This document shows, in pieces, positions 777-22,674 of a stretch of 32,000 nucleotides of DNA; position 1 is the stretch's first letter; each line of letters starts with the position of its first letter. Source of the DNA: Acaryochloris marina MBIC11017 (GTDB lineage: Bacteria; Cyanobacteriota; Cyanobacteriia; Thermosynechococcales; Thermosynechococcaceae); the NCBI RefSeq assembly GCF_000018105.1, contig NC_009925.1, positions 3,240,001 through 3,272,000 of the forward strand. Direction: 5' to 3'. The position numbers were made by a program, and so were the translations under genes. The notes beneath the pieces are model-generated. The model was not told the origin of the DNA. It worked only from the letters and a program-made list of their open reading frames with translations, and did not search any database.

Positions 777-1024
777 ATATCATCCTGATTGCGATGATTC
801 TGGCCCTGGCCATTCCCATTTATGAAGCCTGTCAGGACGAGGATGTGTGGCAGAAAATGCTGGCCTTTGCCAGTATCGCCAGCAAAACGTCGATCATGAT
901 TTTGGTGATTTCAGTCCTGCGGGATGACTGGATGATTGGCGTTGTCGGGGTGCTGATTCTCAGCGTTGGTAATGCTGCCCTGATGCTGTTGGCCCATATT
1001 ATTAAACGGATTAGTGACGGATGA
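773..1024 (+). CDS. mrpF: Mrp antiporter subunit F
   Basis: 83-aa three-helix membrane protein. GGAGGAAG Shine-Dalgarno at 760-767. ATGA overlaps on both sides. Confidence 0.75.
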   Translation: MNIILIAMILALAIPIYEACQDEDVWQKMLAFASIASKTSIMILVISVLRDDWMIGVVGVLILSVGNAALMLLAHIIKRISDG

Positions 1025-1302
1025 TTAACGTAATTAGTTATGTCTGTATGGGCATGGGGATGGTCTTTTGGTTTTGGGGCACCTGGCCCTTAGTGGGTCA
1101 CCGCTCGGTGCTGTATAAGCTCCATAGCCTCTCTGTGGCCGATACCTTGGGTTCCATGTTAATTGTCGTCGGTTTGCTGCTGAAAATCCCCCGAGAGTGG
1201 CCCTTGCTGGTGCTGGCCATTCTATCCCTGGCGATTTGGAATACGGTGCTGGGATATGTGTTGGCCTATTGCTCAAGTAGTCCCAAGGAGGCAGAGACGT
1301 AA
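1021..1302 (+). CDS. mrpG: Mrp antiporter subunit G
   Basis: 93 aa. The LYKLHSLSVADTLGSMLIVVGLLL segment matches the MnhG-type R/H..K..TLG motif region. ATGA overlap with mrpF. Confidence 0.8.
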   Translation: MINVISYVCMGMGMVFWFWGTWPLVGHRSVLYKLHSLSVADTLGSMLIVVGLLLKIPREWPLLVLAILSLAIWNTVLGYVLAYCSSSPKEAET

Positions 1303-1844
1303 TGGAAGATAGCTATGTTTACATCATTATTGCCCTGCTGCCTTTGACCGCAACGATGGTGGTGCTGCAGGTCAATCCCTACCATGCTCTGATTATTCGG
1401 GGGATTTTGGGTGCGGTAGCCGCTCTGGTCTATGCCGTCTTGGGGGCAGCAGACGTAGCTTTAACAGAAGCGCTCGTCGGAACCATGTTGGCGATAACCC
1501 TCTATGCGGTGGCGGTCCGATCCTCTCTAGTGGTGCGCTTGGGTGTGCTCCAGGCCGTTGAACCCCAAGGGTTTCAATCCTGGATTGAAGGATGTCGGAC
1601 GGTATTCTCTAAGCACTATATGCGCTTGGAACTGGTCAATTACCCCAATGACCAAGACCTCCGCCAAGCCTTGAATGAAAAGGAAGTGCATGCCATTTAT
1701 CTGCCTCAACAGCCTGCTGAAGCCCAGGATCAAGCCCTAATCCGCGTCCCTCGCTTATACGAAATTATGGAAGCAGAATTGACATCACCCGATACAACTC
1801 TGACCTGTGTAACGGTGGCTGAGTCAGCGGAGGTGAAGGTATGA
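1302..1844 (+). CDS. mrpA: DUF4040 / MrpA C-terminal-domain-like membrane protein (short cyanobacterial MrpA) with hydrophilic tail
   Basis: N-terminal ~75 aa form two or three TM helices (LLPLTATMVVLQ..., ILGAVAALVYAVLGAADVALTEALVG) typical of the MbhD/DUF4040 fold. AAGGAGG SD at 1284-1290. TAATG overlap with mrpG and ATGA overlap with mrpB. Confidence 0.6.
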   Translation: MEDSYVYIIIALLPLTATMVVLQVNPYHALIIRGILGAVAALVYAVLGAADVALTEALVGTMLAITLYAVAVRSSLVVRLGVLQAVEPQGFQSWIEGCRTVFSKHYMRLELVNYPNDQDLRQALNEKEVHAIYLPQQPAEAQDQALIRVPRLYEIMEAELTSPDTTLTCVTVAESAEVKV

Positions 1845-2503
1845 AGTGGCTGTATATCCTTGCAGGCCTCGCCCTCTATGTCAAAATTTTGGTGATGCCC
1901 AATCCAGAATTGGATGTTGCTGATTTGTCGATGGTGCAGGCTGTCGTTGATGATAGTGGCGTTCCCAATGCCTTAGCAGGCATTATTTTCAGGAATCGCC
2001 TCTACGACACCATTTTCGAAGTGGTGGTGTTTACCATCGCCATTATGGGTGTCCGTTTTCTGTTGGCGGATGAGCAGCCCTCTAAAAAGGTGCATCGATT
2101 TACGGATCAACCTTCGATTGTCCTCGCCAGACTAGGGGCAACCATTGCCTCATTGGTCAGTATCGAGTTGGCGATTCGCGGCCATTTAAGTCCTGGCGGT
2201 GGGTTTGCGGCGGGTGTGGCAGGCGGCACAGCCATTGGTCTAATCGCAATTACCTCGTCTTCCAAGTGGATGCAAGGGATCTATCAGCGCTGGCGAGCAG
2301 CTATGTGGGAGAAGATCTCTGTTCTAGTGTTTTTGGTCTTAGCTGCAATCACATTGGTTGGTTTTGAATTACCCCACGGTGAACTGGGTGCTTTGGTCAG
2401 TGGGGGTGTGATTCCCATTCTTAATGTATTGGTAGCGATTAAGGTGGCCCTCGGTTCTTGGGCGGTGATTTTGGTGTTTATTCGATATCGGGGCTTGCTG
2501 TAA
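1841..2503 (+). CDS. mrpB: Mrp antiporter subunit B
   Basis: 220-aa polytopic protein. NALAGIIFRNRLYDTIFEVVVFTIAIMGV matches the MnhB signature (R.YDT.GE). It is the last gene of the overlapping chain. Confidence 0.8.
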   Translation: MKWLYILAGLALYVKILVMPNPELDVADLSMVQAVVDDSGVPNALAGIIFRNRLYDTIFEVVVFTIAIMGVRFLLADEQPSKKVHRFTDQPSIVLARLGATIASLVSIELAIRGHLSPGGGFAAGVAGGTAIGLIAITSSSKWMQGIYQRWRAAMWEKISVLVFLVLAAITLVGFELPHGELGALVSGGVIPILNVLVAIKVALGSWAVILVFIRYRGLL

Positions 2504-2546
2504 GGGGTTGGATACAATAGAGACACCCCACATCTAAAGCAGAGTT

Positions 2547-3206
2547 ATGGTTGCAACGGTTTTACCTGTTGAGCGTCAAGCCCTTGGAGAAAAACGCGTC
2601 AGTGTTAGTGGTTTGACCTGGGAAGCCTATCAGAAAATTCTGCATGCCTTACCTAACAGTCGAGCGATTAGACTCACCTATGACCAAGGAACTTTAGAAA
2701 TTGCGATGCCTCTGGAAGATCATGAATTTGCCCTGCGATTAATTGAGCGATTCATTGTGATCTTGGTGACAGCTATGGGAATGAAGATCAAAACCATGGG
2801 GTCCACAACCATGGATCGTCCAGATTTAGATCGGGGATCTGAACCTGATTGTGCCTATTACATTCAAAATCAAGCGGTGGTGGCAGGCCGTAAGGTTGAT
2901 TTCTCGCAAGATCCACCGCCAGATTTGGTAGTAGAAGTGGACATTACCAACACGGATATTGCTAAAGATCGGCTGTATGCATCGATGGGAGTGCCTGAGT
3001 TCTGGCGCTATAACGGGCAGGTGTGGCGGATTTTTCAACTGCAAGGAGAAGCGTATCAGGAATGCGATCGCAGTCCCACTTTCGATTGGGTCAACAAAGA
3101 AAACCTATACCACTTCCTAGAACAAGCTCAACAGGATGAAATTGCTGCGGAGCAAGCGTTCCGAGCATGGGCACAAGAGCAATGCCAGCAAAAGTTACAG
3201 CAGTGA
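2547..3206 (+). CDS. Uma2-family (DUF820) endonuclease
   Basis: Motifs of the PD-(D/E)xK Uma2 family that is abundant in cyanobacteria: LTYDQGTLEIAMP, EPDCAYY, PDLVVEVDITNTD, YASMGVPEFWRY. Confidence 0.85.
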   Translation: MVATVLPVERQALGEKRVSVSGLTWEAYQKILHALPNSRAIRLTYDQGTLEIAMPLEDHEFALRLIERFIVILVTAMGMKIKTMGSTTMDRPDLDRGSEPDCAYYIQNQAVVAGRKVDFSQDPPPDLVVEVDITNTDIAKDRLYASMGVPEFWRYNGQVWRIFQLQGEAYQECDRSPTFDWVNKENLYHFLEQAQQDEIAAEQAFRAWAQEQCQQKLQQ

Positions 3207-3357
3207 AACTGGCTGGGTTAGAGCCTGTTTGAGTACACATCTGCACAAGAATATTAGGGTGCCAGATAAAACACTTTATGGGAAAAATAAATAGGCTTTA
3301 ACCCACGTTGACTGCCAGCGTATTCAAATCACCGCCTTGGGATAAACTATTAAAGTT

Positions 3358-4840
3358 CAATGGCACTGACTTAAGCTCAATCAAACAGCTAGCTTAGCTT
3401 TGAGAGCAGAGCGAGGTTGTCGCATTCGCGGGAAAGATTTGGGTCTGCGTTTGACGACTCTCGGTTCGTGCCGATTCGGTCGAGAGGGTAATAGATCGGC
3501 TGCCATGGTCTCAAGTAGATGAGTAAACAACCGCTTTCTGGTCGCACGGTTGGCTGTCGCCAACAAAGCAAGCATCTGATTGAAGTGTTGTCGTGCTCCT
3601 TGCACAGACAGTTGAGTTCTAGCATTATCTGCTAGCGGTGCCGCAAGTTCCATGAGACTTCTGAGTAGGTTATAGCCCAACAAATGTACCCAAATGTCCT
3701 TGCGCACCATATCCGGAGTTTTGGCACTGAGCATCTCCATTTTTAAGGTGGTTTTGAGATGGCGCAGATTGACTTCCGCCACTGGCCAACGCCAGCCATA
3801 CAAGCGAGTCAGTTGCCCAGCGCTGTAGCGTTGAGCATCCAGCAGCGTCGTCACCACAATAATGTGCTGGTCGCGAAAGCCCTTAAGGGATAAGCGCAAA
3901 CACACCTCTCTAACGACCAATGTTTGAGGAATCAGGGCAAAATCTTGCTCACTCATGTGCTCAGGCCGTTGGGCTGGCTTATGCCATGTCACCTGATGAT
4001 CACCAATGCCATGCTTGTTGCCTTTGCGGAAATCAGTCTTGCGAGCATGATGTTTACGCAACACTCCATCAGCCCTGTGTTGTTGAATGATGGCTAGATC
4101 AACATAGCTGCCATAAGCTTGGTCCGCCATGACCACATCACCGACCTCAAGGTCTTGATAGAGCAAACGACTCATGACAATTTCACTGGTGTCCCAGGAG
4201 GCAATACAAGCTGACGCCACTGCACCGGTAACCAAACAGAAGAACACTACCAAGCGAGCGATGGGAAAACCACAGCCTGCTGTTTGATTGCCATGTTGTG
4301 GATATGATGCTTGGTTGGCCGCACTATCAGCCATCAACACGGTGGTTCCGTCGTAGACCTTGACGGGCCGACCACACCAGAGGTGCTCTGGGGAGAGGGG
4401 TTGCGCTAAGCACTCAGCGCTTTCGGGAATTAAACGTTGCAACAGTGACTCTGGAAAGCGACTTCTGGCTTTGCTGTAGGCTCCGGTATCAGATGAGGGC
4501 GGTTGGATGCCAGCCGCTGTGAGCCAAGTCGTGATGCATTTGACTGTGTTACGAAGGCTTTTATCGGCTGATAGCACTTGGTAAAGCATGGCCCACAGCG
4601 TAACGATGGGGCTATATATCCGGTTGCGATAGGAGAATGCTTCTTCTTTCAGGAGTTCCTCTAACCTTGAGGCTAGAAGGATATCTGTCCACGGTAAACC
4701 CAGGCTTTGGGAAAATTGCTGCTTGAGAATTTCGGCTGACTCAGACATAGTGAAAGGCAGAAGTTTATGGCGTGCAAGTCTTGATCCTATATCTATCAAG
4801 ACTTGTAGCCTTTTCCTGACTTCTTAAGTCAGTGCCATTG
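3358..4840 (-). mobile_element. Intact IS4-family insertion sequence (1483 bp)
   Basis: Perfect 18-bp terminal inverted repeats CAATGGCACTGACTTAAG at 3358-3375 and 4823-4840 (reverse complement). They are flanked by a perfect 10-bp direct repeat TATTAAAGTT (3348-3357 and 4841-4850). A single DDE transposase ORF lies inside. Confidence 0.9.
3381..4748 (-). CDS. IS4-family DDE transposase
   Basis: Long ORF with IS4 N-terminal-type region (YRNRIYSPIVTLWAMLYQVL), VMADQAYGSY (second D region) and YGWRWPVAEVNLRHLKTTLKM (Y-RW-E-K region). ATG at 4748 is preferred over the upstream TTG at 4799. Confidence 0.85.
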   Translation of the reverse strand: MSESAEILKQQFSQSLGLPWTDILLASRLEELLKEEAFSYRNRIYSPIVTLWAMLYQVLSADKSLRNTVKCITTWLTAAGIQPPSSDTGAYSKARSRFPESLLQRLIPESAECLAQPLSPEHLWCGRPVKVYDGTTVLMADSAANQASYPQHGNQTAGCGFPIARLVVFFCLVTGAVASACIASWDTSEIVMSRLLYQDLEVGDVVMADQAYGSYVDLAIIQQHRADGVLRKHHARKTDFRKGNKHGIGDHQVTWHKPAQRPEHMSEQDFALIPQTLVVREVCLRLSLKGFRDQHIIVVTTLLDAQRYSAGQLTRLYGWRWPVAEVNLRHLKTTLKMEMLSAKTPDMVRKDIWVHLLGYNLLRSLMELAAPLADNARTQLSVQGARQHFNQMLALLATANRATRKRLFTHLLETMAADLLPSRPNRHEPRVVKRRPKSFPRMRQPRSALKAKLAV

Positions 4841-4926
4841 TATTAAAGTTGGCTTGACCTGAATCGGGCATGTCAAACGCATGGGAAGACGAGCAGTTGA
4901 TGAGCTATTGAGGTGAGGGTGTCAAG

Positions 4927-5355
4927 TTACTCAACTGTTTGTACCTGCACCTGACCATCAACCACCCGAGCCGGATAGACCGCAAGCTTGACAGCATCAT
5001 TATCTAAGCAGTCTCCTGTTTGTAGATTAAAATTCTGTTTATAAATCGGAGAGGCCACTTTCAAGACGCCTTTGCGATCGCCAATTAGACCCCGCGACAT
5101 CACAAACGACTTGCTAAAGGGATCAAAGTTATCTAAGGCATAGACTTCATCGGTTTCACCAATGCGAAAAATAGCCACCTGATTGTCTCCTACCAGAGCA
5201 TTAACACCCGTGTTAGGTGCGATCGCATCTAATGAACAAACGGTGATCCAACGGTTGGCTGTAATCATCGGGGCCGGGGTAGATACGGATTGTTCCATGA
5301 CAGCTTGGGTAATAAGGATCAAGAAAAAACAAGGGGATACAGCTGTGGTCGTCAT
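4927..5355 (-). CDS. nirD: Nitrite reductase (NAD(P)H) small subunit NirD
   Basis: Rieske-like NirD core (WITVCSLDAIAPNTGVNALVGDNQVAIFRI...SPIYKQNFNLQTGDCL). ATG 5355 has AGGGA 9 nt upstream. Internal ATGs at 5298 and 5268 would give a more typical ~113-aa protein, so the start is uncertain. Confidence 0.8.
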   Translation of the reverse strand: MTTTAVSPCFFLILITQAVMEQSVSTPAPMITANRWITVCSLDAIAPNTGVNALVGDNQVAIFRIGETDEVYALDNFDPFSKSFVMSRGLIGDRKGVLKVASPIYKQNFNLQTGDCLDNDAVKLAVYPARVVDGQVQVQTVE

Positions 5356-5384
5356 GTCTGCATCCCTGTCGCAAGGTTGAGAGA

Positions 5385-7946
5385 CTAGCCGGGTGTGACC
5401 AAGGCCTCTCCCTGTTTTAAGATGGCTCGCTCTGCCTCTGTGGCCGGACGCTTTTGGCCCCGCTCCTGTACATAAACCAAAGACGGGTCTGTGGCATCGG
5501 CATTCACAAAGTGACGGAAACGCTGCATATGTTGCGGACTCTCAAGAGTGGCGGCCCACTCACACTGATAGGTGTCCACATGGTGCTGCATCTGGGCTTC
5601 CAGCTCCGCTGCAATGCCAAGGGAGTCCCCAATAATTACCTGTTTGAGATAGGCGAGTCCCCCTTCTAGCTTGTTAAACCATGTAGAAGTACGCTCCAGC
5701 TTATCCGCCGTACGAATGTAAAACATCAAGAACCGGTCGAGATAACGAATTAGGGTTTCTTTATCGATATCCGTCGCCAGCAGAGTGGCATGTTGGGGCT
5801 TGGTGCCACCGTTGCCACAGACATATAGGTTCCAACCATTTTCCGTGGCAATAATGCCAAAGTCTTTACCCTGGGCTTCGGCACATTCCCGTGTACAGCC
5901 TGAAACCGCCGACTTGAGTTTGTGGGGCGATCGCAATCCCCGATAGCGCAGCTCCAAATCAATCGCCAGGCTGGTAGAATCCTGCACACCAAATCGGCAC
6001 CAAGTACTGCCCACACAGGACTTCACCGTGCGCAGCGCCTTACCATAGGCATGGCCTGACTCAAACCCAGCGTCCACCAATCGCTTCCAGATCAGGGGCA
6101 GTTGATCCAGCCGCGCTCCAAATAAGTCCACCCGCTGGGCTCCGGTAATTTTGGTGTACAGGTCAAATTCTTGGGCCACTTGACCCAACACAATGAGCTT
6201 CTCGGGGGTGATTTCTCCCCCCGGTATTCTGGGGATCACAGAATAGGTGCCGTCTTTTTGAATATTGGCCAAAAACGAATCGTTAGTATCTTGGAGGCCC
6301 ACATGGGGACGATCCAGCACATACTCATTCCAGGTGGAGGCTAGCATCGACGCCACTGCTGGTTTACAAATCTCGCAGCCATGGCCCGAACCATGCTGGG
6401 CGAGCAGCGCATCAAATGATTTAATCTGTCCCACCCGTAACAGGTGATATAGCTCCTGACGAGAATAGGGAAAATGTTCGCACAGGTGGTTATTAACCTC
6501 GATACCCGCCTTTTTCAGCTCTGACTGCATCAGGTCTTTCACTAGCGGTACACAACCACCACAGCCAGTGCCTGCATTAGTGCATTTCTTCAGGCCAGGC
6601 AAATCGGTGATATGGTCGTCTCGCACCGCAGAACAAATTTGCCCTTTAGATACATTGTTACAAGAACAAATCTGGGCCGTATCTGGTAGATTCTCCACAC
6701 TCAAGGATGGGGTCTGCCCTTCAACCGCTGGCGCCATTAGGCTTAAAGGGTTGGCTGACAGTTTGACCTGGTTTTGAGTCAGTTGCGAAAATGTCCCATA
6801 GTCCGAGGCATCGCCGATCAGTATGCCTCCTAGCAGTAGCGACCCGTCGCTGTTGACCACTAGCTTTTTGTAAGTGCCTGCGATCGCATCGGTCACTACC
6901 AGCTCTTTAGACCCCGGTGTTTTGGCAAAGTTGTCACCAAAGCTGGCCACATCCACCCCTAGCAGCTTCAGCTTGGTGGACATATCTGCCCCAGTAAACT
7001 GTTGCGGTTTCACTACCTCCATCAGCGTATCGCTGACCACCTCCGCCATATGGTATCCCGGTGCCACTAGGCCAAAGGTACGGTCCTGATAGGCGGCGCA
7101 TTCACCAATGGCATACACCTTGGGATCTGAAGTTTGGCAAGCTTCATTGATGACGATGCCACCTCGGTTGCCAATGTCCAGGTCGCAGTTTCGGGCTAAC
7201 TCATCCCTGGCCCGAATCCCCGCTGAGAAGACAATCATATCCGTCTGTAGTGCTTCGCCATCAGCAAATTCCATTCTCACCAGCTTGCCGTTTTCGCTGA
7301 CAATATCGGTGGTGGCTTTGCTGGTATGTACCTGTACCCCTAGGGCCTCAATTTTGTCTTTCAGTACGGCACCGCCTGCCTCATCGATTTGCACGGGCAT
7401 CAGCCGGGGGGCAAACTCCACTACATGGGTGTCTAAACCCAGGGATTTTAGCGCGTTGGCACATTCCAGACCCAGTAGTCCACCGCCTACGACCACGCCG
7501 GTTTTTACCTGGGAACCGTAGTCTTTAATGGCGTCTAAATCTTCAATGGTGCGATAGACAAAGGTGCCGGTGGCGTCATTGCCTTTGATGGGCGGGACAA
7601 AGGGGTAGGAGCCGGTGGCGATGACCAGCCGATCGTAAGCAATTTCAAGGCCGTTGGCAGACTTGACGATCTGGTGTTTGCGGTCAATCTCCACAACCTG
7701 GTCGCCAATGTAGGTGGTAATGCCATGCTCTTGGTAAAAACCAGGCTCTACCATAGTGAGGTCTGCGGCGGTTTTACCTTCAAAGTACTGACTCAGGTGT
7801 ACACGGTCGTAAGCGACACGGGGTTCTTCTCCAAAGGTGACTAGGTGCCAGCGATCGCCACCTCCTTTCTCTACCATTAGCTGGAGAAACCGATGTCCCA
7901 CCATGCCGTTGCCAACAATGACGAGAGTTTGCTTATGGTTCGGCAT
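5385..7946 (-). CDS. nirB: Nitrite reductase (NAD(P)H) large subunit NirB
   Basis: 853 aa. N-terminal FAD/NAD Rossmann (VIVGNGMVGHRF), BFD-like 2Fe-2S cysteines (CSCNNVSKGQICSAV, CGGCVPLV), and sirohaem/4Fe-4S cysteines (VKSCVGSTWCRFG, SGCTRECAEAQ). Confidence 0.9.
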   Translation of the reverse strand: MPNHKQTLVIVGNGMVGHRFLQLMVEKGGGDRWHLVTFGEEPRVAYDRVHLSQYFEGKTAADLTMVEPGFYQEHGITTYIGDQVVEIDRKHQIVKSANGLEIAYDRLVIATGSYPFVPPIKGNDATGTFVYRTIEDLDAIKDYGSQVKTGVVVGGGLLGLECANALKSLGLDTHVVEFAPRLMPVQIDEAGGAVLKDKIEALGVQVHTSKATTDIVSENGKLVRMEFADGEALQTDMIVFSAGIRARDELARNCDLDIGNRGGIVINEACQTSDPKVYAIGECAAYQDRTFGLVAPGYHMAEVVSDTLMEVVKPQQFTGADMSTKLKLLGVDVASFGDNFAKTPGSKELVVTDAIAGTYKKLVVNSDGSLLLGGILIGDASDYGTFSQLTQNQVKLSANPLSLMAPAVEGQTPSLSVENLPDTAQICSCNNVSKGQICSAVRDDHITDLPGLKKCTNAGTGCGGCVPLVKDLMQSELKKAGIEVNNHLCEHFPYSRQELYHLLRVGQIKSFDALLAQHGSGHGCEICKPAVASMLASTWNEYVLDRPHVGLQDTNDSFLANIQKDGTYSVIPRIPGGEITPEKLIVLGQVAQEFDLYTKITGAQRVDLFGARLDQLPLIWKRLVDAGFESGHAYGKALRTVKSCVGSTWCRFGVQDSTSLAIDLELRYRGLRSPHKLKSAVSGCTRECAEAQGKDFGIIATENGWNLYVCGNGGTKPQHATLLATDIDKETLIRYLDRFLMFYIRTADKLERTSTWFNKLEGGLAYLKQVIIGDSLGIAAELEAQMQHHVDTYQCEWAATLESPQHMQRFRHFVNADATDPSLVYVQERGQKRPATEAERAILKQGEALVTPG

Positions 7947-8107
7947 ATGTTTAGTTTTTGAGCAACATACTGAGCACCAGGGTGATCGATCCCTGGCGAA
8001 AAAAACAGCCCCTGTATGCGCTAATTGATTTAGATCGATGCAATAAACGCGTTTAGAGGTGCATTATTAACAGTTATTTTCAAAAGTAAAAAAAACAATG
8101 CTGGAAC

Positions 8108-8122
8108 ATAACAAGTTGTTAT
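8108..8122. promoter_or_regulatory. Perfect 7-1-7 palindrome ATAACAAgTTGTTAT upstream of nirB (candidate operator)
   Basis: Read directly. It lies ~160 nt upstream of the nirB ATG in an AT-rich intergenic region. No regulator is assigned. Confidence 0.25.
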
Positions 8123-8231
8123 TGAACGGTAATCTTTTGCAAAGCATTTTGTGACAGTGGATTGGTTTCTAGTTCTCAAAAAAAATCTGCAGAATGAATT
8201 CAGTTGCGTCTATTTCCGGATGGTGACGACT

Positions 8232-8351
8232 GGCTTCGATTGGGTCAACCAAGAAGACCTGTACCACTTCCTTGAACAAGCCCAACAAGATGAAATTGCT
8301 GCCGAGCAAAATTTTCGAGCATTGGTGCAACACAAACTTCAGCAGCAATAA
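8232..8351 (+). pseudogene. 3' remnant of a second Uma2-family gene
   Basis: GFDWVNQEDLYHFLEQAQQDEIAAEQNFRA... parallels the C-terminus of the intact Uma2 gene (TFDWVNKENLYHFLEQAQQDEIAAEQAFRA). There is no homology upstream of ~8232. Confidence 0.6.
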
Positions 8352-8356
8352 TCCAC

Positions 8357-10186
8357 TTATGGTCTGTACATCACCCAGCCTCTAGAGGTGAGAAACTGAC
8401 TGTTGGAGTTTGAATTGCCATAACTGAGCATTTCATGTTTGGCCGACTTGGGGCAGCCATCGGTACTCTGTTCACCAATACAGAGCAGCTTCCAGCCAGA
8501 AAAGGTAGTGGAACTACCGGGAGAAATCGGCTCAATACCAGGATTGACTGATTGAAATTGGTTAAATAATTGATTCAGTGCTAAAAATTGGGACTGACTG
8601 AGAGATGCAATGTTGGCACTGTAAGCGGGAATGGGTTGATTAGGATTTTGGATCACTTGATCAACAATAGAAATCTCAGGCTGCCTTGCTGGTGGGGGCG
8701 TACTCCCAAGATCTTGCACATCAGGCTTGGCCCATTGGGGTTTGAGAGATATGCGACAGCGTGGATTGTCTAAGTTGCAGTACAACTCTTGACACTGAAG
8801 CTGTTGCCAAAGGGCTGCCTCGTCACTATAAAAGAAATCACTGCCAATTCCTGGACCTCTGGGTAAAAGAACATTACAGGCATGTTGTCGAGTGCCCGTA
8901 ATTTTTAATACGCCAGCCGTATAAGTCTGAATTTCGTCATTATTGCTATTGGCAACATTGACTGTTTTGGTAATGGTAGGGTTGGGGGGCGTGTCATGAC
9001 TGAGGGGGGCAGCCGAAATGGCTTCCTCATCTGGATCATTGAAGCTATCAGCAGGGGCGGCTGCCTCATCCTCAGCATCTTGCTCTGCAGCATTGGTAGA
9101 AATGATGGGATTCACTTCCTGAACGGGCGGTTTTAAGATCATGGCTGCTCCCATAATGCTGGCGGCAATTACACTAGTGCCTGCAATGACAGGAACCAAC
9201 CAGTTCTTACTCGGCTTTACCTCTGCTTGGTTAGACACTGGTGCAGCAGGTTGTGAAGTCATGGGTGTTGGCACGACATACTCAGTCGTTGCCAAGGTGT
9301 CTGAAGTTTGCGGAGTAGGTGGTATGGGTGGCGTATCCCTAATGGGAGTCGAAGGGTTGACGACGGTGGATTTTGCTTGTTGTAAGGCCTGAATGGCTTC
9401 TCCAGCGGTTTGATAGCGCTCTTTGAAGTGGTAGCGCACCATTTTGGTGAGAAATTGAGCAAAGCCACTGCTAACGTCGGCTTGGCCGATCCAAACTAGT
9501 TCGCCTTCGTCATCTTCTGGGAGTTGGGCAGGGGAGAGTCCGGTGAGGGCTTGAATACCAATAATGCCAACGGCATAAAGGTCGCTGCTAAATCGAGGTT
9601 TGCCACGGGTTTGTTCAGTGGGCATGTATCCTGGGGTGCCAATCGCGACAGTTTGGCTGACTTGTCCTGATATAACAGTTTGTTGGGCACGCACTTCTTT
9701 AACCGCTCCAAAGTCAATCAGAACCAGTTGGTTGTCCTGTTGGCGGCGAAGAATATTGTCTGGCTTAATGTCTCGATGAATCACCTTTTGGTCATGGACA
9801 AACGTAAGAATATTGAGAATTTCCTCCATTAGCTGGATAACCTGGGGTTCACTCCAACACTGGCCGAGAGGTAGCTCCTGAGTAAGCGGATGCCCTTCAA
9901 TAAATTCTTGTACCAGATAAAATTCAGCACTTTGCTCAAAGTAAGCTAACAGCTGGGGAATCTGAGAGTGCTTCCCCAGTTTTTGGAGAGTTTCTGCTTC
10001 GCTAAAAAATAAACGCTTAATCGTAGTGAGAAAGTCAGAATCTGCCTTGGCCGCATGGAGGCGCTTAACCACGCATTGGGGCTGACCTGGTAAGTGGGTG
10101 TCTTTGGCGATAAACGTTTGTCCCATCCCTCCAGCAGCGAGTGGTTGGATGATCTGGTAATGCCCAGCAAGAATTTGTTCAGTCAT
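8357..10186 (-). CDS. Hanks-type Ser/Thr protein kinase with one TM helix and a Cys-containing extracytoplasmic domain
   Basis: Gly-rich loop LAAGGMGQTF, VVKRL lysine, HRDIKPDN, DFG, GTPGYMPTE. Pro-rich linker. TM WLVPVIAGTSVIAASIMGAAMIL (res 329-351). ~258-aa C-terminal domain with 6 Cys. Confidence 0.9.
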   Translation of the reverse strand: MTEQILAGHYQIIQPLAAGGMGQTFIAKDTHLPGQPQCVVKRLHAAKADSDFLTTIKRLFFSEAETLQKLGKHSQIPQLLAYFEQSAEFYLVQEFIEGHPLTQELPLGQCWSEPQVIQLMEEILNILTFVHDQKVIHRDIKPDNILRRQQDNQLVLIDFGAVKEVRAQQTVISGQVSQTVAIGTPGYMPTEQTRGKPRFSSDLYAVGIIGIQALTGLSPAQLPEDDEGELVWIGQADVSSGFAQFLTKMVRYHFKERYQTAGEAIQALQQAKSTVVNPSTPIRDTPPIPPTPQTSDTLATTEYVVPTPMTSQPAAPVSNQAEVKPSKNWLVPVIAGTSVIAASIMGAAMILKPPVQEVNPIISTNAAEQDAEDEAAAPADSFNDPDEEAISAAPLSHDTPPNPTITKTVNVANSNNDEIQTYTAGVLKITGTRQHACNVLLPRGPGIGSDFFYSDEAALWQQLQCQELYCNLDNPRCRISLKPQWAKPDVQDLGSTPPPARQPEISIVDQVIQNPNQPIPAYSANIASLSQSQFLALNQLFNQFQSVNPGIEPISPGSSTTFSGWKLLCIGEQSTDGCPKSAKHEMLSYGNSNSNSQFLTSRGWVMYRP

Positions 10187-12261: not shown

Positions 12262-13965
<1,704 letters not shown>

Positions 13966-16828: not shown

Positions 16829-18085
16829 TTAACGATCACAAATGGTATGAATCGACTGTCGGCAGTTCTTGGAGGCAATATTGATCGCTTCTAAGGCTCG
16901 CTGATAATCAGCTTGGTTGTTGTCTTTAAGCGCTAGATCGGCGGCGGTGCGTAAGTCGGTGAGGGCGGCCCCTTGTTGACCTTGGTTGAGATATACAATC
17001 CCTCGGTTGTAGTAGAGAATGGCGTGGTCTCCCTGGAGCTGAATGGCCTGGGAGTAATCTGCGATCGCACCCCTCGTATCCCCTAGAGACGATTGCACCA
17101 AAGCCCGACCAATATAGGCTTGCAGCAGATTTTTGTCCAACTGAATCGCCTGATTAAAATCCTGTAAGGCTCCCGTCTGATCTTGTTTGACGAGGCGAAT
17201 GCTGCCTCGCAGGGCATAGGCTGGGGCAAATTGAGAATTTTGGCTAATAGCCTGGGTGGTATTGCGTAACGCTCCGGCCATATTCCCCAGACGATATTGA
17301 TCTAAGGCTTGCACGTAGAAGTCAGAGGCACTGGAAGGTGCAGAGGGGATAGAGGTAATGGGTTTAATGGGGGTAGTGACGGTATTGGCCGGGGCCATCT
17401 TCAAGAAAGTATGAATCGGAATCCCGAGGTTAAACCCCGTTTTGATAAAGATATCGGGGTTGATATTTTGATTTTGAACCGTAGTGGTGGTGTCTGCACG
17501 GCCATGAATGCCTAGTAGTTTGCCGTCCTTATCTAGAACGGGTCCACCACTCATGCCGGGGAGAGTGTTGTTGGTATAAACCAGGGCATAGCCATCACTT
17601 AAGGGACGAGTGGCATTGGCCGTAATCGTGCCTGTGGTGAAGTTGTAGATAATATCTGTCAACGCCTGAGTTCGGCTGGGAAACCCGGCGACGTAGCTTT
17701 CGCTGCCTTCTGAGAGCTGTTGAGAGTCGCCAATTTTGACCACCGTATAGGGGCGGTCACTGGTAAATTCCAGTAAGGCTAAGTCAACCCCAGGAAATTT
17801 GGTAATCGTTTGCACATTGACGGGATATTCCTGGCCATCATTGGTGATCACGACGTATTCATCGACGGTGGCCACAACGTGGGCTGCGGTCAAAACGGTA
17901 TAGCGATTGCCATTGCGTTTGATAATTACGCCAGAGCCGGGGGCTTGGCTATCGACCCGCACAGTGATTTGTTTGGCGACTTTGTTAATTTCAGCGGGGC
18001 TAAGGGCGAGGGTGACTTGCGGTGCCAAGACCATGGCGGCAACCGTTCCTAGGAGCAGGGTGGAAAATTTTTGGGGAATGTTCAT
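16829..18085 (-). CDS. Secreted trypsin-like (S1) serine protease fused to TPR repeats
   Basis: Signal peptide. Catalytic triad contexts TAAHVV, DLALLEF, GMSGGPV. C-terminal ~170 aa form TPR-like repeats (AYALRGSIRL..., AYIGRALVQS..., LYYNRGIVYL...). Confidence 0.85.
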   Translation of the reverse strand: MNIPQKFSTLLLGTVAAMVLAPQVTLALSPAEINKVAKQITVRVDSQAPGSGVIIKRNGNRYTVLTAAHVVATVDEYVVITNDGQEYPVNVQTITKFPGVDLALLEFTSDRPYTVVKIGDSQQLSEGSESYVAGFPSRTQALTDIIYNFTTGTITANATRPLSDGYALVYTNNTLPGMSGGPVLDKDGKLLGIHGRADTTTTVQNQNINPDIFIKTGFNLGIPIHTFLKMAPANTVTTPIKPITSIPSAPSSASDFYVQALDQYRLGNMAGALRNTTQAISQNSQFAPAYALRGSIRLVKQDQTGALQDFNQAIQLDKNLLQAYIGRALVQSSLGDTRGAIADYSQAIQLQGDHAILYYNRGIVYLNQGQQGAALTDLRTAADLALKDNNQADYQRALEAINIASKNCRQSIHTICDR

Positions 18086-18116: not shown

Positions 18117-18369
18117 AAACCGATGCTTGGATGTCTTACCTAGTTAGCATATGACTCTGGTTCGAGGATACCCTAACCCTGTTTGAGGTTAGACAAGGTT
18201 TTATTCACCAGAATAAAAACCAGCATCTGTTTTAATCTTAACGACTTAATTTTAGGAGACTAAGACTTGGATCACGGCTAGGGAGTGATCTTGGAAGGGT
18301 CTTGGCCGCTTTTGGTGATGCCAATTATGAGGTAGAGGATAGAGAAGTAAACCCTTGCCAGATCTGGTT

Positions 18370-19469
18370 ATGGAACTCCTCCAGCAATTCCTTCCGTGCC
18401 AAGACACCCTCCATCTAGAAAGTTGGGATCTTGAATTCTAACCATCAAATAACCTTCCATGTTTCTTCAACCCAAGTCTTTGCATGTTGTCCAGTCTGCA
18501 ATCAAATCACCCACCGCGTCCACAGTCGTTATGAGCGAACCCTGAGAGACCTTCCCTGTGTGGATTTCTGCCTGACCATTCTGCTTCAAGTTTGCAAGTT
18601 CTTTTGCCGTAACGAGGCTTGCAAACGCTGCATCTTTACTGAGCGATTGCCCAAGGTTGCTGTTCCTTGGGCCAGAAAGACTATTCGGTTTGCTGAACAC
18701 CTTACCTCGATTGGCCTAGCCCTTGGGGGTGCCGCAGCAGCGAGGCTGAGCTATCAGATCAATTATGGGAGTAGTCGCAATACGATGTTACGCTCTATTG
18801 CCAAGCTAGAGCCTCCCCCTGCCCCAACCCCTAAGATTCTAGGGGTAGATGATTTTGCCTTTCAGCGTGGCCATCACTATGGCACGATTCTGGTGGACTT
18901 AGAACACCATCGGACTATTGCCCTCCTACCAGATCGTGATGCAAAAACTTTAGTCGCTTGGTTGGAAGAACACCCTGGTGTTGAAATCCTTTCTCGTGAC
19001 CGCTCCAAGACCTACAAGTCTGCCATAAGTGAAGGTGCGCCCAATGCCATTCAGGTCGCAGATCGCTTCCACCTGCTGAAGAACTTACAAGAAGTATTGG
19101 AAAAGGTATTTCACTCTAACTATCCTGCGCTGAAAAGTGTTGATGCAGCCCTCTTGAAATCTGAAGTACCTGAGCCACATGCACCAGAGAGTAACGAGAA
19201 AAGCAAGGTGCCTCCCGATGAGCAAGGTCCTCGGAGTCGTGCTCATCGATTGAACAACTATCAACAAACTCATGCCTTGAAGCAGCAGGGGTATTGAGTG
19301 ACTGACATTGCTCATCATCTAGGTATTGCCAAAAGGACTGCTTACCAGTATTTGTCCCACCCATTCTTTCCTGAACATCAGCCCTATACCCGTAAAGTGC
19401 CTACTGTTATCGAGCCTTACAAAGACTATCTTTACCAAGAGTGGATGGCTGGGCGACAGAATAGCTATT
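18370..19469 (+). pseudogene. ISL3-family transposase, inactivated (frameshift, in-frame TGA, missing C-terminal catalytic region)
   Basis: MELLQQFLPCQDTLHLESWDL (ATG 18370) is in a different frame from the main ORF (18431..), so there is an indel between 18419 and 18441. zf-ISL3 CPVC...HSRYERTLRDLP...FFCRNEAC. DDE parts GVDDFAF, LSRDRSKTY, ADRFHLLKN. TGA at 19295-19297. The HTH part DIAHHLGIAKRTAYQYL continues to ~19469. No SNG-VEG-type E region appears in any frame. Confidence 0.75.
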
Positions 19470-20236
19470 GTACGAAGTACCGTGACGCCTTGATTGGGCA
19501 CAAATCGATCAAGTGTGTTAAGACGAACGATCTCGATGCTGAGACCGTGGCCGTTCTTGAAACTCTCCCCCGCCTTGAGCAACTTCAGATCTCACATCGC
19601 CGGATACCGTCATCCCTCAACCTGGCTGGTCTTTCGAGTTGCCGCTATGTGATGCTAAACGATGTGCGTCAATTAGAGAGTCTTGACATTGTCGCTAACA
19701 TGCCGTCGCTTGAGTGCTTGTTCGTGCGTGGTCCCAAAACGCTAGATCTGGAGGCGTTGTCAACTCTCAATTTGCGCGAGTTGGCCATGTGGTGCTTTTT
19801 CCCCTGGACGGAAATGGATCCACTTTTTTCAAATACAAAGCTTGAGTATTTGTGTCTTGGAGGAATTAAACCTGCGCCGGAAGATTGTGGTCGATTTCGA
19901 GATCTTAAGCACCTGGAGCAGATCGAATTCAACAGCAGTTCTCATCCCTTTGATTTTTACGCCAGAATGGATAGCGTTCTTTCCCAACGAGTTGACCGCA
20001 ATTGGAGACTACTTGTGCGACTTGCAGAGGAATGCAGCGTACACCCTGGCCACCCTCTCCTTCAGGCGTCGGGTTCGCGACAACGACCATTCTGTGAATT
20101 GTGTTCCCCGAAACGCCTAGAAAAACTCGCTGTTTGTTATGCCTCTCTTACCGGAGTTCCGCTGCCTGTCCCGAAGGTGGAATCAGAGCAATTTGGAATG
20201 TCAAAAGACGGCAAGCACTATCGCTTTTTTACATGA
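19298..20236 (+). CDS. Chimeric ORF: ISL3 transposase HTH segment fused in frame to a leucine-rich-repeat-like region
   Basis: It is in the same frame as 18431..19297, separated only by one TGA. Residues ~1-57 are transposase-like. Residues ~80-215 show irregular LxxLxL repeats (LPRLEQLQISH, LESLDIVANMPSLECLFV, LNLRELAMW, KLEYLCLGG, LKHLEQIEFN). Expression is uncertain. Confidence 0.45.
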   Translation: MTDIAHHLGIAKRTAYQYLSHPFFPEHQPYTRKVPTVIEPYKDYLYQEWMAGRQNSYCTKYRDALIGHKSIKCVKTNDLDAETVAVLETLPRLEQLQISHRRIPSSLNLAGLSSCRYVMLNDVRQLESLDIVANMPSLECLFVRGPKTLDLEALSTLNLRELAMWCFFPWTEMDPLFSNTKLEYLCLGGIKPAPEDCGRFRDLKHLEQIEFNSSSHPFDFYARMDSVLSQRVDRNWRLLVRLAEECSVHPGHPLLQASGSRQRPFCELCSPKRLEKLAVCYASLTGVPLPVPKVESEQFGMSKDGKHYRFFT

Positions 20237-20472
20237 CCAGATGTTGGCATTTTTAATGGGACTGATGACCAAGCCGTGCACAGGACAACGGCATTTTAAT
20301 ATTTACATCATTCCGTAGTTGCTGGGGACACAGATAACCATGGTATGAACGCGGAGCCAGCGAACTCGCGTTTTGAAGATGGAAGGATTTCTGCGCCAGC
20401 CCGTTTATGCCAAACGTTACCCTACCTTCTCAGATCACCAAAAGCGGCCAAGACCCTCTTGGGTTGAAAATT

Positions 20473-22674
20473 CTACCGAACACTGGCTTGAGTCACTTCC
20501 TTGGTCTGTTCTTGACTTGGTATTGCTATATTGTCAGGATCTTGCCTGCAGTATTGCTCTTTAAAGTGTTCCTGAACGTAGTAATGAACAAATTGATAAT
20601 GCCCCGCAACACACAGAATGAAGCGATAATTTTCAGCTTGTTGCAAGAATTTTGCGAAGTTCCAAGGGGCAACACCGGACTGAAAAAGAACAAAGCGTAA
20701 ACAGATGTGTTTAATTACTTCTTCAAGTCCGCTAGTTAGCATAACGATAAGTCCGATAGTTAATCCGCAAATACATCCTCCAATCAGCCAGCTTGTTGAA
20801 TTGAAAAGTACTACAATCACTAGCCCTCCAAGTACCCCTCCAATCACCCCTCCAATTAGTCCAAGACTTATGGAAGTTGCGATTGATTCTTTGATTCCTT
20901 GATTGGGACTTGGATGGTGAGTTCTCTTTGATTCTTTAACTATACCAGCGCTTAATCCTTCAATTAGCCCTACAACTAGTCCAAAAATAAGCCCTCCAAT
21001 ATGCCCTTCAGTCTGTCCAAAAGTTTGCCTAAAAATTAGTCCTCCAAATAGTCCTCCAAATAGTCCTCCTATTAACCAGAACATCAGCTTTTGTCTGAAA
21101 TTGGTCCAAGAGAACTTAGTTTTTCCTGTTACTTTAATATCAGTGTTCCATTTTTCATGCCCTCGTTTTAATCCACAGCTTAGACCAATTATTAGACCTC
21201 CAATTAGCCCTCTGTTTAACTTGAATATTGGTCCTCCAATTAGGCTATCTAAAAGCCTTCCAATGAAGCCACCAACTAATCCTCCGGTTAGTGAAAAAAT
21301 TAGTATAGTTATCTGTCTAAAAAATTTTTTTTGGTCTGGTTTTAACCAAGATGGCTGTAAACCCTCAATCCAAAAACAGGTTGGTGTTTTATGGGTATCT
21401 TTGCTTTTGCTAAGGTTCTTGGCTAGCCAACCTAGGTAATCTAAAATCTTATCTGATGTTGGCAATTTTTTTGATCTATGAATGCTATTTTGATCATCTT
21501 TACTGAGTTGATAATGTATATATTTATCGATAATCTCATCACGACAGAGTGGCATGGTAAGTGAATCAATATCTTCATCTTGATAAGCAGCTACCAACAT
21601 AGAGAGGAAAAAAGGTAAATAAGTTATGTCTTCCTCTTCATGAGTAAAATTCTTGCTTAATACACTTTTGAGTGATCCCTTACCTAAGTTATGAAAATAA
21701 CTTTGAATTTGAAGTGTATCAGGTTTCTTTAAGTTAATGACTCCGTTCAAATATTTAAATATTTGAGTGTTGCTTTCTGGGTTTTCATTTCCTTCACTTC
21801 TACAGCAAATTAGACATTTAGTTAATGGATTCTGTTCTAAGAAGCCATTTATAGATTGAATACATAACCTCTGACTTTTTGTGTATGAAGATTTGATACT
21901 ATCTAACTCATCTATTTCTCTTAGATCATCTAATCCATCTAGAAATAGAAAAATATGATTTTGATCAATTAATATTTTGGTGTCTGATTTTGGAACGCCA
22001 TATTTGTTTTTAATCTGAGTAAATAGCCATTTCTCAAACTCTTGTTCTTCATAAGAATATTGAGATAGGTCTAAAGGTATTGGGATAGGATTGTCAGATA
22101 GTGTTTTATGTTTTTGTAGAAAAACTATCTCTTCTAAAAGAAGTTGTTTAGCTGTTTCTAGCAACTCATCAGTTTTTCCTGACCCATGTTCTCCAAGCAT
22201 GAGGCATCTACCTTTTATATAGTCATGCTCTAAAAAAGAAACTGTTGTTGGGTGATCTGCATAATTTAGGATTCGTGGTGTTTTCTTGTCTGAAAAATTT
22301 TCATTAGGTGGTATGACTGTGAGAAGAGCTGTCTTATGCTGAAGACCAATACGAAATTTGGATTCATATCGTGAGTCTTTAAGTTTTAAAATGACTTCTT
22401 TCCAAACTTTTTTGAGTAAGGTTTGACGAGTAAATAAGATTTCTTGATCTTTGATTTTTGCTTGTCTAGGGAATAAATTATGAATGGTTTTTTGTATGCC
22501 TTCAATAACTGTAGGAGCGTTCTCAGTAATCTTTGCTAGTGCTGTAATTATTGAAGACGTACCTAATGTATTTAGAATGTTTTGCCAACTGCTAGCCACT
22601 TCAATGGCATCAGATGGGTTGGCTTTGCTACTGGTTGCAATGGTAGACACCCACGATATAATGTCATGAATCAT
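20473..22674 (-). CDS. NACHT/STAND-type P-loop NTPase with an embedded six-helix glycine-zipper membrane module
   Basis: 733 aa. Walker A GEHGSGKT (res 161-168, nt 22171-22194). Walker B IFLFLDGLDD (res 241-250). LICCRSE (TSR-like) at 288-294. Residues ~452-650 form six hydrophobic GxxxG-rich helices (GGLVGGFIG, LIGGLIIGL, LIGGLFGGLFGGL, IGGLIFGLVVGL, LIGGVIGGVLGGL, LIGGCICGLTIGL) separated by basic loops. The tail ...GHYQFVHYYVQEHF resembles C-termini of cyanobacterial NACHT proteins. The gene is very AT-rich. Confidence 0.8.
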   Translation of the reverse strand: MIHDIISWVSTIATSSKANPSDAIEVASSWQNILNTLGTSSIITALAKITENAPTVIEGIQKTIHNLFPRQAKIKDQEILFTRQTLLKKVWKEVILKLKDSRYESKFRIGLQHKTALLTVIPPNENFSDKKTPRILNYADHPTTVSFLEHDYIKGRCLMLGEHGSGKTDELLETAKQLLLEEIVFLQKHKTLSDNPIPIPLDLSQYSYEEQEFEKWLFTQIKNKYGVPKSDTKILIDQNHIFLFLDGLDDLREIDELDSIKSSYTKSQRLCIQSINGFLEQNPLTKCLICCRSEGNENPESNTQIFKYLNGVINLKKPDTLQIQSYFHNLGKGSLKSVLSKNFTHEEEDITYLPFFLSMLVAAYQDEDIDSLTMPLCRDEIIDKYIHYQLSKDDQNSIHRSKKLPTSDKILDYLGWLAKNLSKSKDTHKTPTCFWIEGLQPSWLKPDQKKFFRQITILIFSLTGGLVGGFIGRLLDSLIGGPIFKLNRGLIGGLIIGLSCGLKRGHEKWNTDIKVTGKTKFSWTNFRQKLMFWLIGGLFGGLFGGLIFRQTFGQTEGHIGGLIFGLVVGLIEGLSAGIVKESKRTHHPSPNQGIKESIATSISLGLIGGVIGGVLGGLVIVVLFNSTSWLIGGCICGLTIGLIVMLTSGLEEVIKHICLRFVLFQSGVAPWNFAKFLQQAENYRFILCVAGHYQFVHYYVQEHFKEQYCRQDPDNIAIPSQEQTKEVTQASVR

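Follow-up and report, generated by a model that had tools for sequence, protein, structure and literature searches.

Organization of the Locus

The stretch analyzed here, referred to as the window, comprises 32,000 nucleotides (nt) of Acaryochloris marina MBIC11017 (NC_009925.1, forward-strand positions 3,240,001 to 3,272,000), and all coordinates are counted from its first nucleotide. Between positions 18297 and 20456 lies a unit bounded by inverted repeats that resembles an insertion sequence (IS) of the ISL3 family. Within it, the front part of a transposase gene runs in frame into most of a gene for a leucine-rich-repeat (LRR) protein, which is followed by a repeat resembling the attC recombination sites of integron gene cassettes. 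The parts of this unit, including its left and right terminal inverted repeats (IRL and IRR), are as follows.

18289-18296, no strand: left copy of the target-site duplication, 8 bp, TCTTGGAA, from the empty site in Acaryochloris sp. CCMEE 5410 (L043)
18297-18319, plus: IRL, GGGTCTTGGCCGCTTTTGGTGAT, 23 bp, the perfect complement of 20434-20456
18370-18437, plus: transposase codons 1-22, MELLQQFLPCQDTLHLESWDLE, up to a 2-nt deletion that shifts the frame (translation and alignment)
18438-19294, plus: N-terminal two thirds of the transposase, with the Zn-ribbon, the first part of the DDE domain and two D residues (NCBIfam and Pfam profiles)
19295-19297, plus: in-frame TGA nonsense codon; R at the matching position in P0006, the closest full-length relative
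19298-19465, plus: internal helix-turn-helix (HTH) segment of the transposase up to the junction, ...EWMAGRQNS (homology to the L004, L005 and L006 genes)
19463-19465, plus: AGC microhomology at the junction of an internal deletion of ~1.0 kb, common to both lineages in a three-way alignment
19466-20236, plus: passenger LRR gene, codons 49-304 and stop, with the first 47 codons deleted (99.6% nt identity to L001)
20334-20422, plus: putative attC-type recombination site (covariance model, 83.1 bits, E=5e-23, full length, sole match in the window)
20417-20433, plus: 17 nt of subterminal IS sequence, TTACCCTACCTTCTCAG, from the cassette crossover point to IRR (motif shared with relatives)
20434-20456, minus: IRR, 23 bp; homology to L001 ends at 20456, and the L001 flank differs beyond it
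20457-20462, no strand: right copy of the target-site duplication, TCTTGG, with the terminal AA missing (empty site in L043 as reference)

The window shares 99.995% identity with the chromosome of A. marina MBIC10699 (AP026075.1), and Logan contigs from SRR29694083 and SRR29694091 match it at 100%. The window is chromosomal, and as a whole it found no match among PLSDB plasmids.

Ends of the Element and Its Insertion Site

The two arms at 18296-18319 and 20434-20457 are 100% complementary over 24 nt, and none of 100 dinucleotide-preserving shuffles produced such a match by chance. Positions 18297 and 20456 are the outer limits of homology with independent copies of the element. Therefore, the functional inverted repeats are 23 bp long and the unit measures 2160 bp; the 24th A/T pair of the arms is part of the flanks and a coincidence. 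Terminal inverted repeats of the ISL3 family are about 15-39 bp long and start with GG, and the perfect 23-bp pair conforms to this pattern. A repeat beginning with GGGTCTTGG also bounds the related elements L006 and L004 (1-4 mismatches), and the window IRL shares 20 of 23 positions with that of the named element ISAcma23. An exact search for the repeats in GTDB representative genomes returned 0 matches; the source strain is not a species representative.

The corresponding region of CCMEE 5410 is collinear with the window (about 96% identity) and lacks the element. Its empty site reads GTGA-TCTTGGAA-GTTGAAAA. In the alignment, the window order of TCTTGGAA, element and TCTTGG-GTTGAAAATT stands against GTGA-TCTTGGAA-GTTGAAAATT at the empty site, and therefore the duplication is the 8-bp TCTTGGAA, with a right copy that lacks AA. 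The immediate flanks are TCTTGGAA and TCTTGGGT, and the GT in the right flank is the next target sequence, outside the duplication. Duplications of 8 bp are typical of the ISL3 family, and perfect ones accompany the relatives L004, L006 and ISAcma23.

Remains of an ISL3 Transposase Gene

The open reading frame (ORF) at 18431-19297 encodes the N-terminal part of an ISL3 transposase. It scores 248 bits with the NCBIfam model transpos_ISL3 (cut-off 180), covering profile positions 2-223 of 370, and it matches Pfam PF14690 (Zn_ribbon_ISL3) and PF01610 (DDE_Tnp_ISL3, positions 1-103 of 240), both above their gathering thresholds. The unit thus retains the Zn-ribbon and DDE_Tnp_ISL3 domain of the family and lacks a complete DDE triad and an intact transposase ORF, which makes it a derivative rather than an active member. 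The retained transposase part is 90% identical to L004 at the nucleotide level and 74-78% identical to P0006 at the amino acid level.

Full-length relatives of this transposase are 550-568 aa long. They consist of a Zn-ribbon, the DDE domain, an internal HTH and a C-terminal SNGxxEG motif, and they have a normal ISL3 C-terminus (...SNGPVEGLNNKLKMLKRQMYGRA...). From the window, ~200 C-terminal residues are deleted, including the SNGxxEG motif and the catalytic E, and homology to the L004, L005 and L006 transposase genes ends at 19463-19465. Two smaller lesions lie upstream. Alignment with four relatives places a 2-nt gap between 18437 and 18438, which constitutes a -2 frameshift, and the TGA at 19295 probably arose from an ancestral CGA (Arg) codon, judging from the residue in P0006. 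Apart from this single stop, the frame is open from 18431 to 20236. The frameshift, the TGA codon and the loss of the catalytic E together indicate that the unit, as far as its sequence tells, is a dead, non-autonomous ISL3 derivative.

Most structural elements of the original prediction are upheld by these comparisons. It had described an IR-bounded ISL3 derivative rather than a simple truncated IS, which agrees with the profiles, the repeats and contig L001 (below). Its perfect 24-bp repeats are confirmed by complementarity and shuffling, with a functional length of 23 bp. The proposed 5′ frameshift is now placed at the 2-nt deletion, the in-frame TGA corresponds to Arg in the closest full-length relative, and translation confirms one frame from 18431 to 20236 broken by a single stop. 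Moreover, the junction anticipated near 19470 maps to 19463-19465, the suspected decayed 8-bp duplication is verified by CCMEE 5410, and the empty site that was to be sought in a related strain is present there.

The Passenger Gene and Its Product

Among 5.8 billion proteins, the residues encoded by 19472-20233 have only five relatives (P0001-P0005). Four are 304 aa long and one is called at 380 aa; identities to the query are 99, 87, 87, 65 and 59%. All five carry ~47 additional conserved N-terminal residues that are absent from the window. A profile search of 1.84 billion representatives met about ten full-length relatives of ~290 aa and, beyond these, hundreds of generic LRR proteins over residues 60-205. 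Pairwise ratios of nonsynonymous to synonymous substitution rates (dN/dS) among the five orthologue-like genes are 0.12-0.21, and therefore this is a real gene. Between the window and L001 there are 3 coding changes, 2 of them nonsynonymous, with no sign of selection.

Pfam LRR_4 and related families match this segment below their gathering scores (E 2.5e-4 to 0.04). The AlphaFold2 model of P0001 (pLDDT 71, pTM 0.75) is an LRR solenoid of alternating strand/helix repeats over residues ~60-205, and its best Foldseek matches in the PDB are SDS22, the internalins InlA and InlB, and Roco LRR (E 1e-5 to 1e-3, TM about 0.3-0.4). The LRR-like character originally read from the repeats is thus substantiated by the predicted solenoid, the structural matches and the profile matches, the Pfam ones being sub-threshold. 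Membership of the LRR part in the NCBIfam family STM4015 was considered and rejected (15.9 bits against a cut-off of 275). The passenger product is probably a very rare, cytoplasmic, protein-binding LRR protein without a signal peptide.

The LRR gene is also present without any IS in L002, L007 and L045. A tblastn search for the gene on plasmids found none, and no LRR homologue was found in the Pirellulaceae loci described below, which share only the attC-type repeat.

Parent Arrangement and the Deletion Junction

The contig most informative about the ancestry of the unit is L001 (Logan SRR17348483), which is 99.6% identical to window positions 19463-20456, with 4 mismatches in 994 nt (L001 594-1587). 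It contains, in order, a transposase C-terminus, a relic inner right repeat (IRR*), 183 nt, an intact LRR gene, a 91-nt repeat, 17 nt, the outer IRR and an unrelated flank. The transposase ends in ...FAKGLIDDYAAVKAGLTLEVSNGPVEGLNNKLKMLKRQMYGRAGLDLLNRRMVLTD*, includes the motif SNGPVEGLNNKLK, and is 90% identical to L004 in this C-terminal part, as is the N-terminal part in the window. Its stop codon lies 280 nt before the 304-codon gene, and about 200 nt separate that gene from IRR. Because the LRR sequence is a separate, intact gene in L001 and the relatives have a normal C-terminus, it is a passenger gene and not a transposase domain.

We mapped the junction by aligning the window with L004, which represents the transposase lineage, and with L001, which represents the passenger lineage. 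Transposase homology (90% nt) stops at 19465 and passenger homology begins at 19463, and the shared AGC is a Ser codon in both ...RQNS|QQLF... and ...GQRS|YCTK.... The deletion joins transposase codon ~365 to LRR codon 48 in frame, a one-in-three chance outcome. Its estimated size of about 1015 nt is the sum of one AGC, 421 nt in L001 (positions 173-593) and, taking L004 as the model, 591 nt of the transposase gene. It removed the catalytic E, and therefore the fusion could never have been an active transposase. The fused ORF is seen at one genomic locus in one lineage only, and the available sequences give no indication that the deletion derivative was mobilized or amplified.

An attC-Like Repeat Delimits the Passenger

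In the window, the repeat downstream of the LRR gene has an R″ box AGATAAC at 20332-20338 and an R′ box GTTACCC at 20416-20422, which puts the cassette end at G20416. The covariance model that detects it was trained only on copies from Pirellulaceae, and it also matches L001, L002 (two copies), L007 and L045. The 5′ boundary of the module is identical in L001, L002 and L007, where G|TTAT(C/T)CGAA follows unrelated upstream sequences, and its 3′ end is ...AAACG|TTACCC in the window and L001. The passenger therefore has the makeup of a cassette, namely an ORF and an attC-type site with both ends at G|TT. An alternative 3′ boundary at CCCG|TTTATG, where the homology of L001 and L007 fades, was rejected since the family alignment puts R′ at GTTACCC. 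In L002, a second, divergent copy of the repeat follows the preceding gene, which encodes a GNAT acetyltransferase.

A pattern scan of the GTDB representative genomes found the repeat in 14 contigs of metagenome-assembled genomes (MAGs) of Pirellulaceae and Planctomycetaceae, 11 of them from one MAG. Five loci (L018, L019, L021, L030 and L015) are arrays of 2-4 same-strand copies spaced 0.6-2.3 kb apart, with each copy 3′ of an unrelated ORF that in most cases lacks a Pfam match; arrays in one orientation with unrelated ORFs between the sites are characteristic of cassettes. Aligned copies are conserved only between ...ATAAC and GTTAT..., with complete divergence outside. Taxon-specific families of attC sites are documented, including one for Planctomycetes (PMC8352920).

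The conserved segment can be drawn as an imperfect hairpin with the R″/R′ boxes ATAAC·GTTAT, a GC-rich central stem and three bulged bases. Its L″/L′ boxes, for example TGGCAT·ATGCCA, co-vary with AACGAT·ATCGTT, GGCGT·ACGCC and GGGTT·AACCC. Across 24 copies, 88% of cells are paired compared with 27-40% in slid controls, 15 of the 24 pairs show compensatory changes, and the observed values were reached in none of 500 shuffles. An intact family copy folds exactly as proposed, with z-scores of -2.4 and -2.5 on the two strands and a minimum-free-energy fold that equals the proposed structure. At the level of the family, the repeat thus has the imperfect hairpin of attC, with structure kept more than sequence. 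On these anatomical grounds, the ORF and the repeat appear to form an integron-type gene cassette with an attC-like site of planctomycete type, a feature that the original prediction had missed.

Two further loci bear on the distribution of the gene. In L007, the LRR cassette (site at 2524-2612) looks like the last of an array; downstream are genes for a rhodanese and an NPCBM-domain protein, not another cassette, and the contig is free of IS elements. The most distant passenger homologue (59% identity, L003 1-1469) lies behind another LRR-protein gene with a 9-nt gap, and an attC of the passenger's family is not detectable there. Therefore, the LRR gene family is not always cassette-borne.

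Position of the Cargo and Related Elements

The 17 nt between the cassette and IRR are IS sequence. The motif ...CTTCTCAG also stands just before IRR in L005, L006 and ISAcma23, in two of which (ISAcma23, 38 nt, and L006) IRR lies about 40 nt past the transposase stop. In L001, the decayed IRR* (ATTACCAAAAGAGGTAAAGGAAA) is found 38 nt past the stop codon, with the same spacing as in ISAcma23. It matches IRR at 15 of 23 positions, a value equalled by 7 of 2000 shuffles.

Other members of this clade carry cargo of their own. The L006 unit (138-3119) has a perfect 8-bp duplication, AGGTAATG. Its cargo is a response-regulator gene on the left side of the transposase gene, flanked by the outer IRL and by a relic IRL* 72 nt ahead of the ATG. 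The L004 unit (914-5892; perfect 8-bp duplication AAACAAAT) carries small ORFs and a nested DDE_Tnp_1 transposase, and the L005 unit (4534-9525) carries a 455-aa ORF and a MauJ-like ORF and has an inner partial IRR. Relic inner repeats in L001 and L006, combined with intact outer ones, suggest that this ISL3 clade gains passengers by switching to a distal inverted repeat.

Plasmid pREC2 of A. marina MBIC10699 carries, beside IS relics, a segment 79% identical to the 183-nt spacer of L001, and with it a cassette-free version of the left cassette junction. Homology ends exactly at AATAG|TTA, the 5′ crossover point of the cassette, after which pREC2 carries an unrelated 190-aa ORF (WP_261891895.1) and then only the 5′ half of an attC-like site. 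In the same region (L046 3970-4800, corresponding to ~36640-37470 of NZ_AP026077.1), no transposase separates an IRR* relic from the IRL-like sequence (18/23) that nearly touches it. We evaluated the 190-aa ORF as a cassette of the same family, and its downstream sequence gave no covariance-model match and no hairpin, only a similar 5′ half. Searching ±20 kb on pREC2 did not locate a second place for the 183-nt segment.

Interpretation and Alternative Explanations

We propose, with a probability of roughly 85%, that window positions 18297-20456 are a dead, internally deleted ISL3 element whose full-length form, of about 3.2 kb, carries one integron-type cassette of the kind found in Pirellulaceae (Planctomycetota). 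The parent has the order seen in L001: transposase gene, relic IRR*, 183 nt, cassette, 17 nt and outer IRR. Both cassette ends are at G|TT, and therefore we infer that one cassette was inserted by an integron integrase; the target would have been a non-attC site lying 17 nt inward of the outer IRR, and this outer repeat would have taken over from the decayed inner one in the manner by which this clade appears to gain cargo. The element inserted at TCTTGGAA between a gene for a trypsin-TPR protein and one for a P-loop NTPase. A ~1.0-kb deletion between two AGC triplets took away some 200 codons from the end of the transposase gene, with the catalytic E, together with IRR*, the spacer and the first 47 LRR codons, leaving an in-frame fusion presumably without function. 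The -2 frameshift, the nonsense mutation and the 2-bp loss in the right duplication could have come before or after this deletion. Any movement now would depend on a related transposase acting on the intact ends, and the mobilization in trans that was originally suggested is possible in principle.

Several observations weigh against parts of this proposal. The parent was not recovered as a complete copy: the 1.6-kb contig L001 lacks the 5′ part of the transposase gene, so that the parent length and the deletion size are estimates made via L004. Transposition and deletion could have come in either order. To the right of the insertion site, beyond TTAC, there is no homology to pREC2, and a simple one-step insertion at a secondary site is therefore only a candidate mechanism. 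The attC label should be understood as an anatomical one, with no linked IntI. In L007 the R′ end is decayed and lacks GTT, and 4 of 24 stem pairs are broken in the window copy, which fits decay outside an integron.

These last points bear on the possibility that the LRR gene and its 3′ repeat are ordinary cargo, with the repeat being a REP-like (repetitive extragenic palindrome) or MITE-like (miniature inverted-repeat transposable element) sequence, or a terminator, of Pirellulaceae that was picked up with flanking DNA. An intI gene was found in none of the fetched loci (≤8 kb), as judged by a crude scan for tyrosine-recombinase motifs and a few Pfam scans; those of long ORFs in the array loci revealed a Mutator transposase and a sulfatase and no integrase. 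The core boxes, ATAAC...GTTAT, depart from the textbook RYYYAAC/GTTRRRY. In addition, the copies in the window, L002 and L007 fold as single strands no better than shuffled sequences do (z -1.2 to +0.8), although this argument against attC is overturned by the covariation among 24 copies and the fold of the intact copy. A terminator or dispersed repeat would also have to explain why copies stand on the same strand, 3′ of successive unrelated ORFs and 0.6-2.3 kb apart, why the sequences diverge totally outside ATAAC...GTTA, and why module boundaries are at G|TT in three independent contexts. The second, divergent copy after the preceding ORF in L002, the bulged bases of the imperfect hairpin, the strong covariation in its L and central stems, and the existence of an attC family particular to Planctomycetes (PMC8352920) likewise favor a recombination site. 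We therefore judge the ordinary-cargo explanation to be improbable.

It is harder still to sustain the view, advanced in the original prediction, that the fusion is or once was a functional chimera, whether as a domesticated DNA-binding/LRR protein or as the HTH-LRR product of a GTG-initiated ORF at 19298-20236. In its favor, the two parts join in frame, only one stop interrupts 18431-20236, and the 312-aa ORF starts directly after the TGA, has a G-rich stretch upstream and is a called gene in Logan assemblies. Yet an in-frame join is expected 1 time in 3, and the two genes are separate in the parent. Missing from the fusion are both the catalytic E and the 47 conserved residues with which members of the LRR family begin; its transposase part bears a frameshift and a nonsense codon, and the ORF occurs at one locus of one lineage, where its 3 coding changes relative to L001 (2 nonsynonymous) carry no signal of selection. 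Nothing suggests function, and we regard a zf/DDE-LRR chimera as very improbable. The accompanying claim that LRR sequence replaced the catalytic part also fails, given that the LRR segment is a separate gene in L001 and ~1.0 kb was lost between the two genes. What does hold is the recognition of the segment as foreign cargo: the reading that would have undone it, in which LRR sequence is the normal C-terminus of this transposase subgroup, is contradicted by the 550-568-aa relatives with their ISL3 ending (...SNGPVEGLNNKLKMLKRQMYGRA...).

Least probable of all, in our estimation, is that the left part of an ISL3 element and a cassette with a solo IRR were unrelated fragments that recombination between two different IS copies joined in situ, and that they never transposed as a unit. 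The imperfect right duplication, TCTTGG instead of TCTTGGAA, and the fact that deletion and insertion could have occurred in either order would permit such a history. However, exactly one 2160-bp insert with duplicated TCTTGG(AA) splits otherwise collinear sequence at the empty site, the repeats are perfect (23/23), and in L001 this cassette and this IRR follow a transposase C-terminus that is 90% identical to L004, as the N-terminal part in the window also is.

Within the preferred history of a deleted, cassette-bearing IS, one may ask what determined the point of entry. The pREC2 junction may mark a second "cassette" at the same point, in which case the site would be attI-like or a hot secondary site. 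By extension, the 183-nt segment could be an attI-like acceptor or hot secondary site that travels in the IS. Also pointing this way is the cassette itself, whose attC is of planctomycete type and which has reached a cyanobacterium and been transposed there without an integron. We consider this extension unlikely and offer it tentatively; if true, it would represent a route for cassettes across phyla that is missed by integron-centered surveys.

Neighboring Genes

The element is inserted upstream of the trypsin-TPR gene (16829-18085, minus strand), at a distance of 211 nt, and the ancestral insertion point is 10 nt downstream of the stop codon of a 733-aa P-loop NTPase gene (20473-22674, minus strand; stop codon 20473-20475, 15 nt from 20457). 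The 15-nt distance from the stop codon of a NACHT gene that had been noted for this locus is correct, and the NACHT assignment is weaker: Pfam NACHT (PF05729) matches the 733-aa protein with E=0.0029 and 17.9 bits, below the gathering score of 26.7. The sequence shows a Walker A motif (GEHGSGKT) and a Walker B-like one (LFLDGLDD). The C-terminal half is long, rich in glycine zippers and probably membrane-embedded, and the GC content of the gene (0.28-0.35, against about 0.48 in the surroundings) suggests a foreign origin. The gene is found in both MBIC10699 and CCMEE 5410, and because it is also present at the empty site of the latter, its proximity to the element is incidental.

Elsewhere in the window, a DDE_Tnp_1 (IS4/IS5-like) transposase gene at 3381-4799 (minus strand) is flanked by the Uma2 and Rieske genes. 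The syntenic contig L044 (SRR12447955) does not have it, which makes it a second insertion polymorphism. At 12289-13965 (plus strand) there is a GroEL gene with a C-terminal GGM repeat, whose protein is identical in MBIC10699 and CCMEE 5410.

Significance and Relation to Known Systems

In one respect the locus is more ordinary than was proposed, since the "chimera" appears to be what an internal deletion left behind in a dead IS. For annotation, this means that the 312-aa "HTH-LRR" ORF and the 170- and 288-aa transposase fragments are best treated as pieces of one pseudogenized element and not as a novel fusion protein. In another respect it is more interesting, because a planctomycete-type attC cassette seems to lie inside a cyanobacterial ISL3 element for which relic inverted repeats, a cassette-free junction and an empty chromosomal site are preserved. 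The locus would document how an ISL3 element gains cargo as an inner repeat decays and a distal one takes over, how an entire integron cassette, recombination site included, can serve as that cargo, and how an element dies by microhomology-mediated deletion, with before-and-after sequence states. If the attC assignment and the planctomycete origin are true, then IS elements can carry individual cassettes from one phylum to another and leave them outside integrons. This would add to the ways in which genomes come to contain so many orphan attC sites and CALINs (attC clusters that have no integrase).

The closest named relative is ISAcma23 of A. marina, annotated on pREC1 of MBIC10699 and the nearest intact ISL3 transposase found on the plasmids of that strain. 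It belongs to the same family and clade and has the same transposase architecture; its first 821 nt are 78% identical to the window element, the IRLs agree at 20 of 23 positions, and it likewise makes an 8-bp duplication (TAACCTCG in L008). Unlike the window element, it carries no passenger, and amino acid identity is only about 65%, a level at which ISfinder convention recognizes a different IS.

Transport of passenger genes by this family has a precedent in ISPst2, an ISL3 "transporter" IS of 2,985 bp with two passenger genes and 8-bp direct repeats (PMC6305408). As in the relatives L006 and L004, one ISL3 transposase gene and genes unrelated to transposition lie between the inverted repeats and move as a unit. 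The arrangement described here differs in that its passenger is apparently a single integron-type cassette with its own recombination site, and in that a relic IRR* marks the cargo as lying between the old and the new end.

The cassette itself can be compared with those at secondary (non-attI) sites and in CALINs, which have IS elements as frequent neighbors (Cury et al. 2016; PMC4889954). It shares with them an ORF, an attC-like hairpin, G|TT boundaries and a location away from an integrase. In contrast, it is positioned inside an IS, 17 nt from IRR, and so would be movable by transposition, and it combines an attC type from planctomycete arrays with a cyanobacterial host and IS. As a deletion product, the unit also resembles MITE-like or "mini-IS" derivatives, in which the inverted repeats are intact, the transposase has been destroyed at a short microhomology and mobility depends on a transposase in trans. 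It is unlike them in being large (2.2 kb), in occurring as a single copy and in keeping most of its passenger gene. Given that transporter IS elements and cassettes outside integrons are both already known, we suggest that the combination found here is best viewed as a variant of both.

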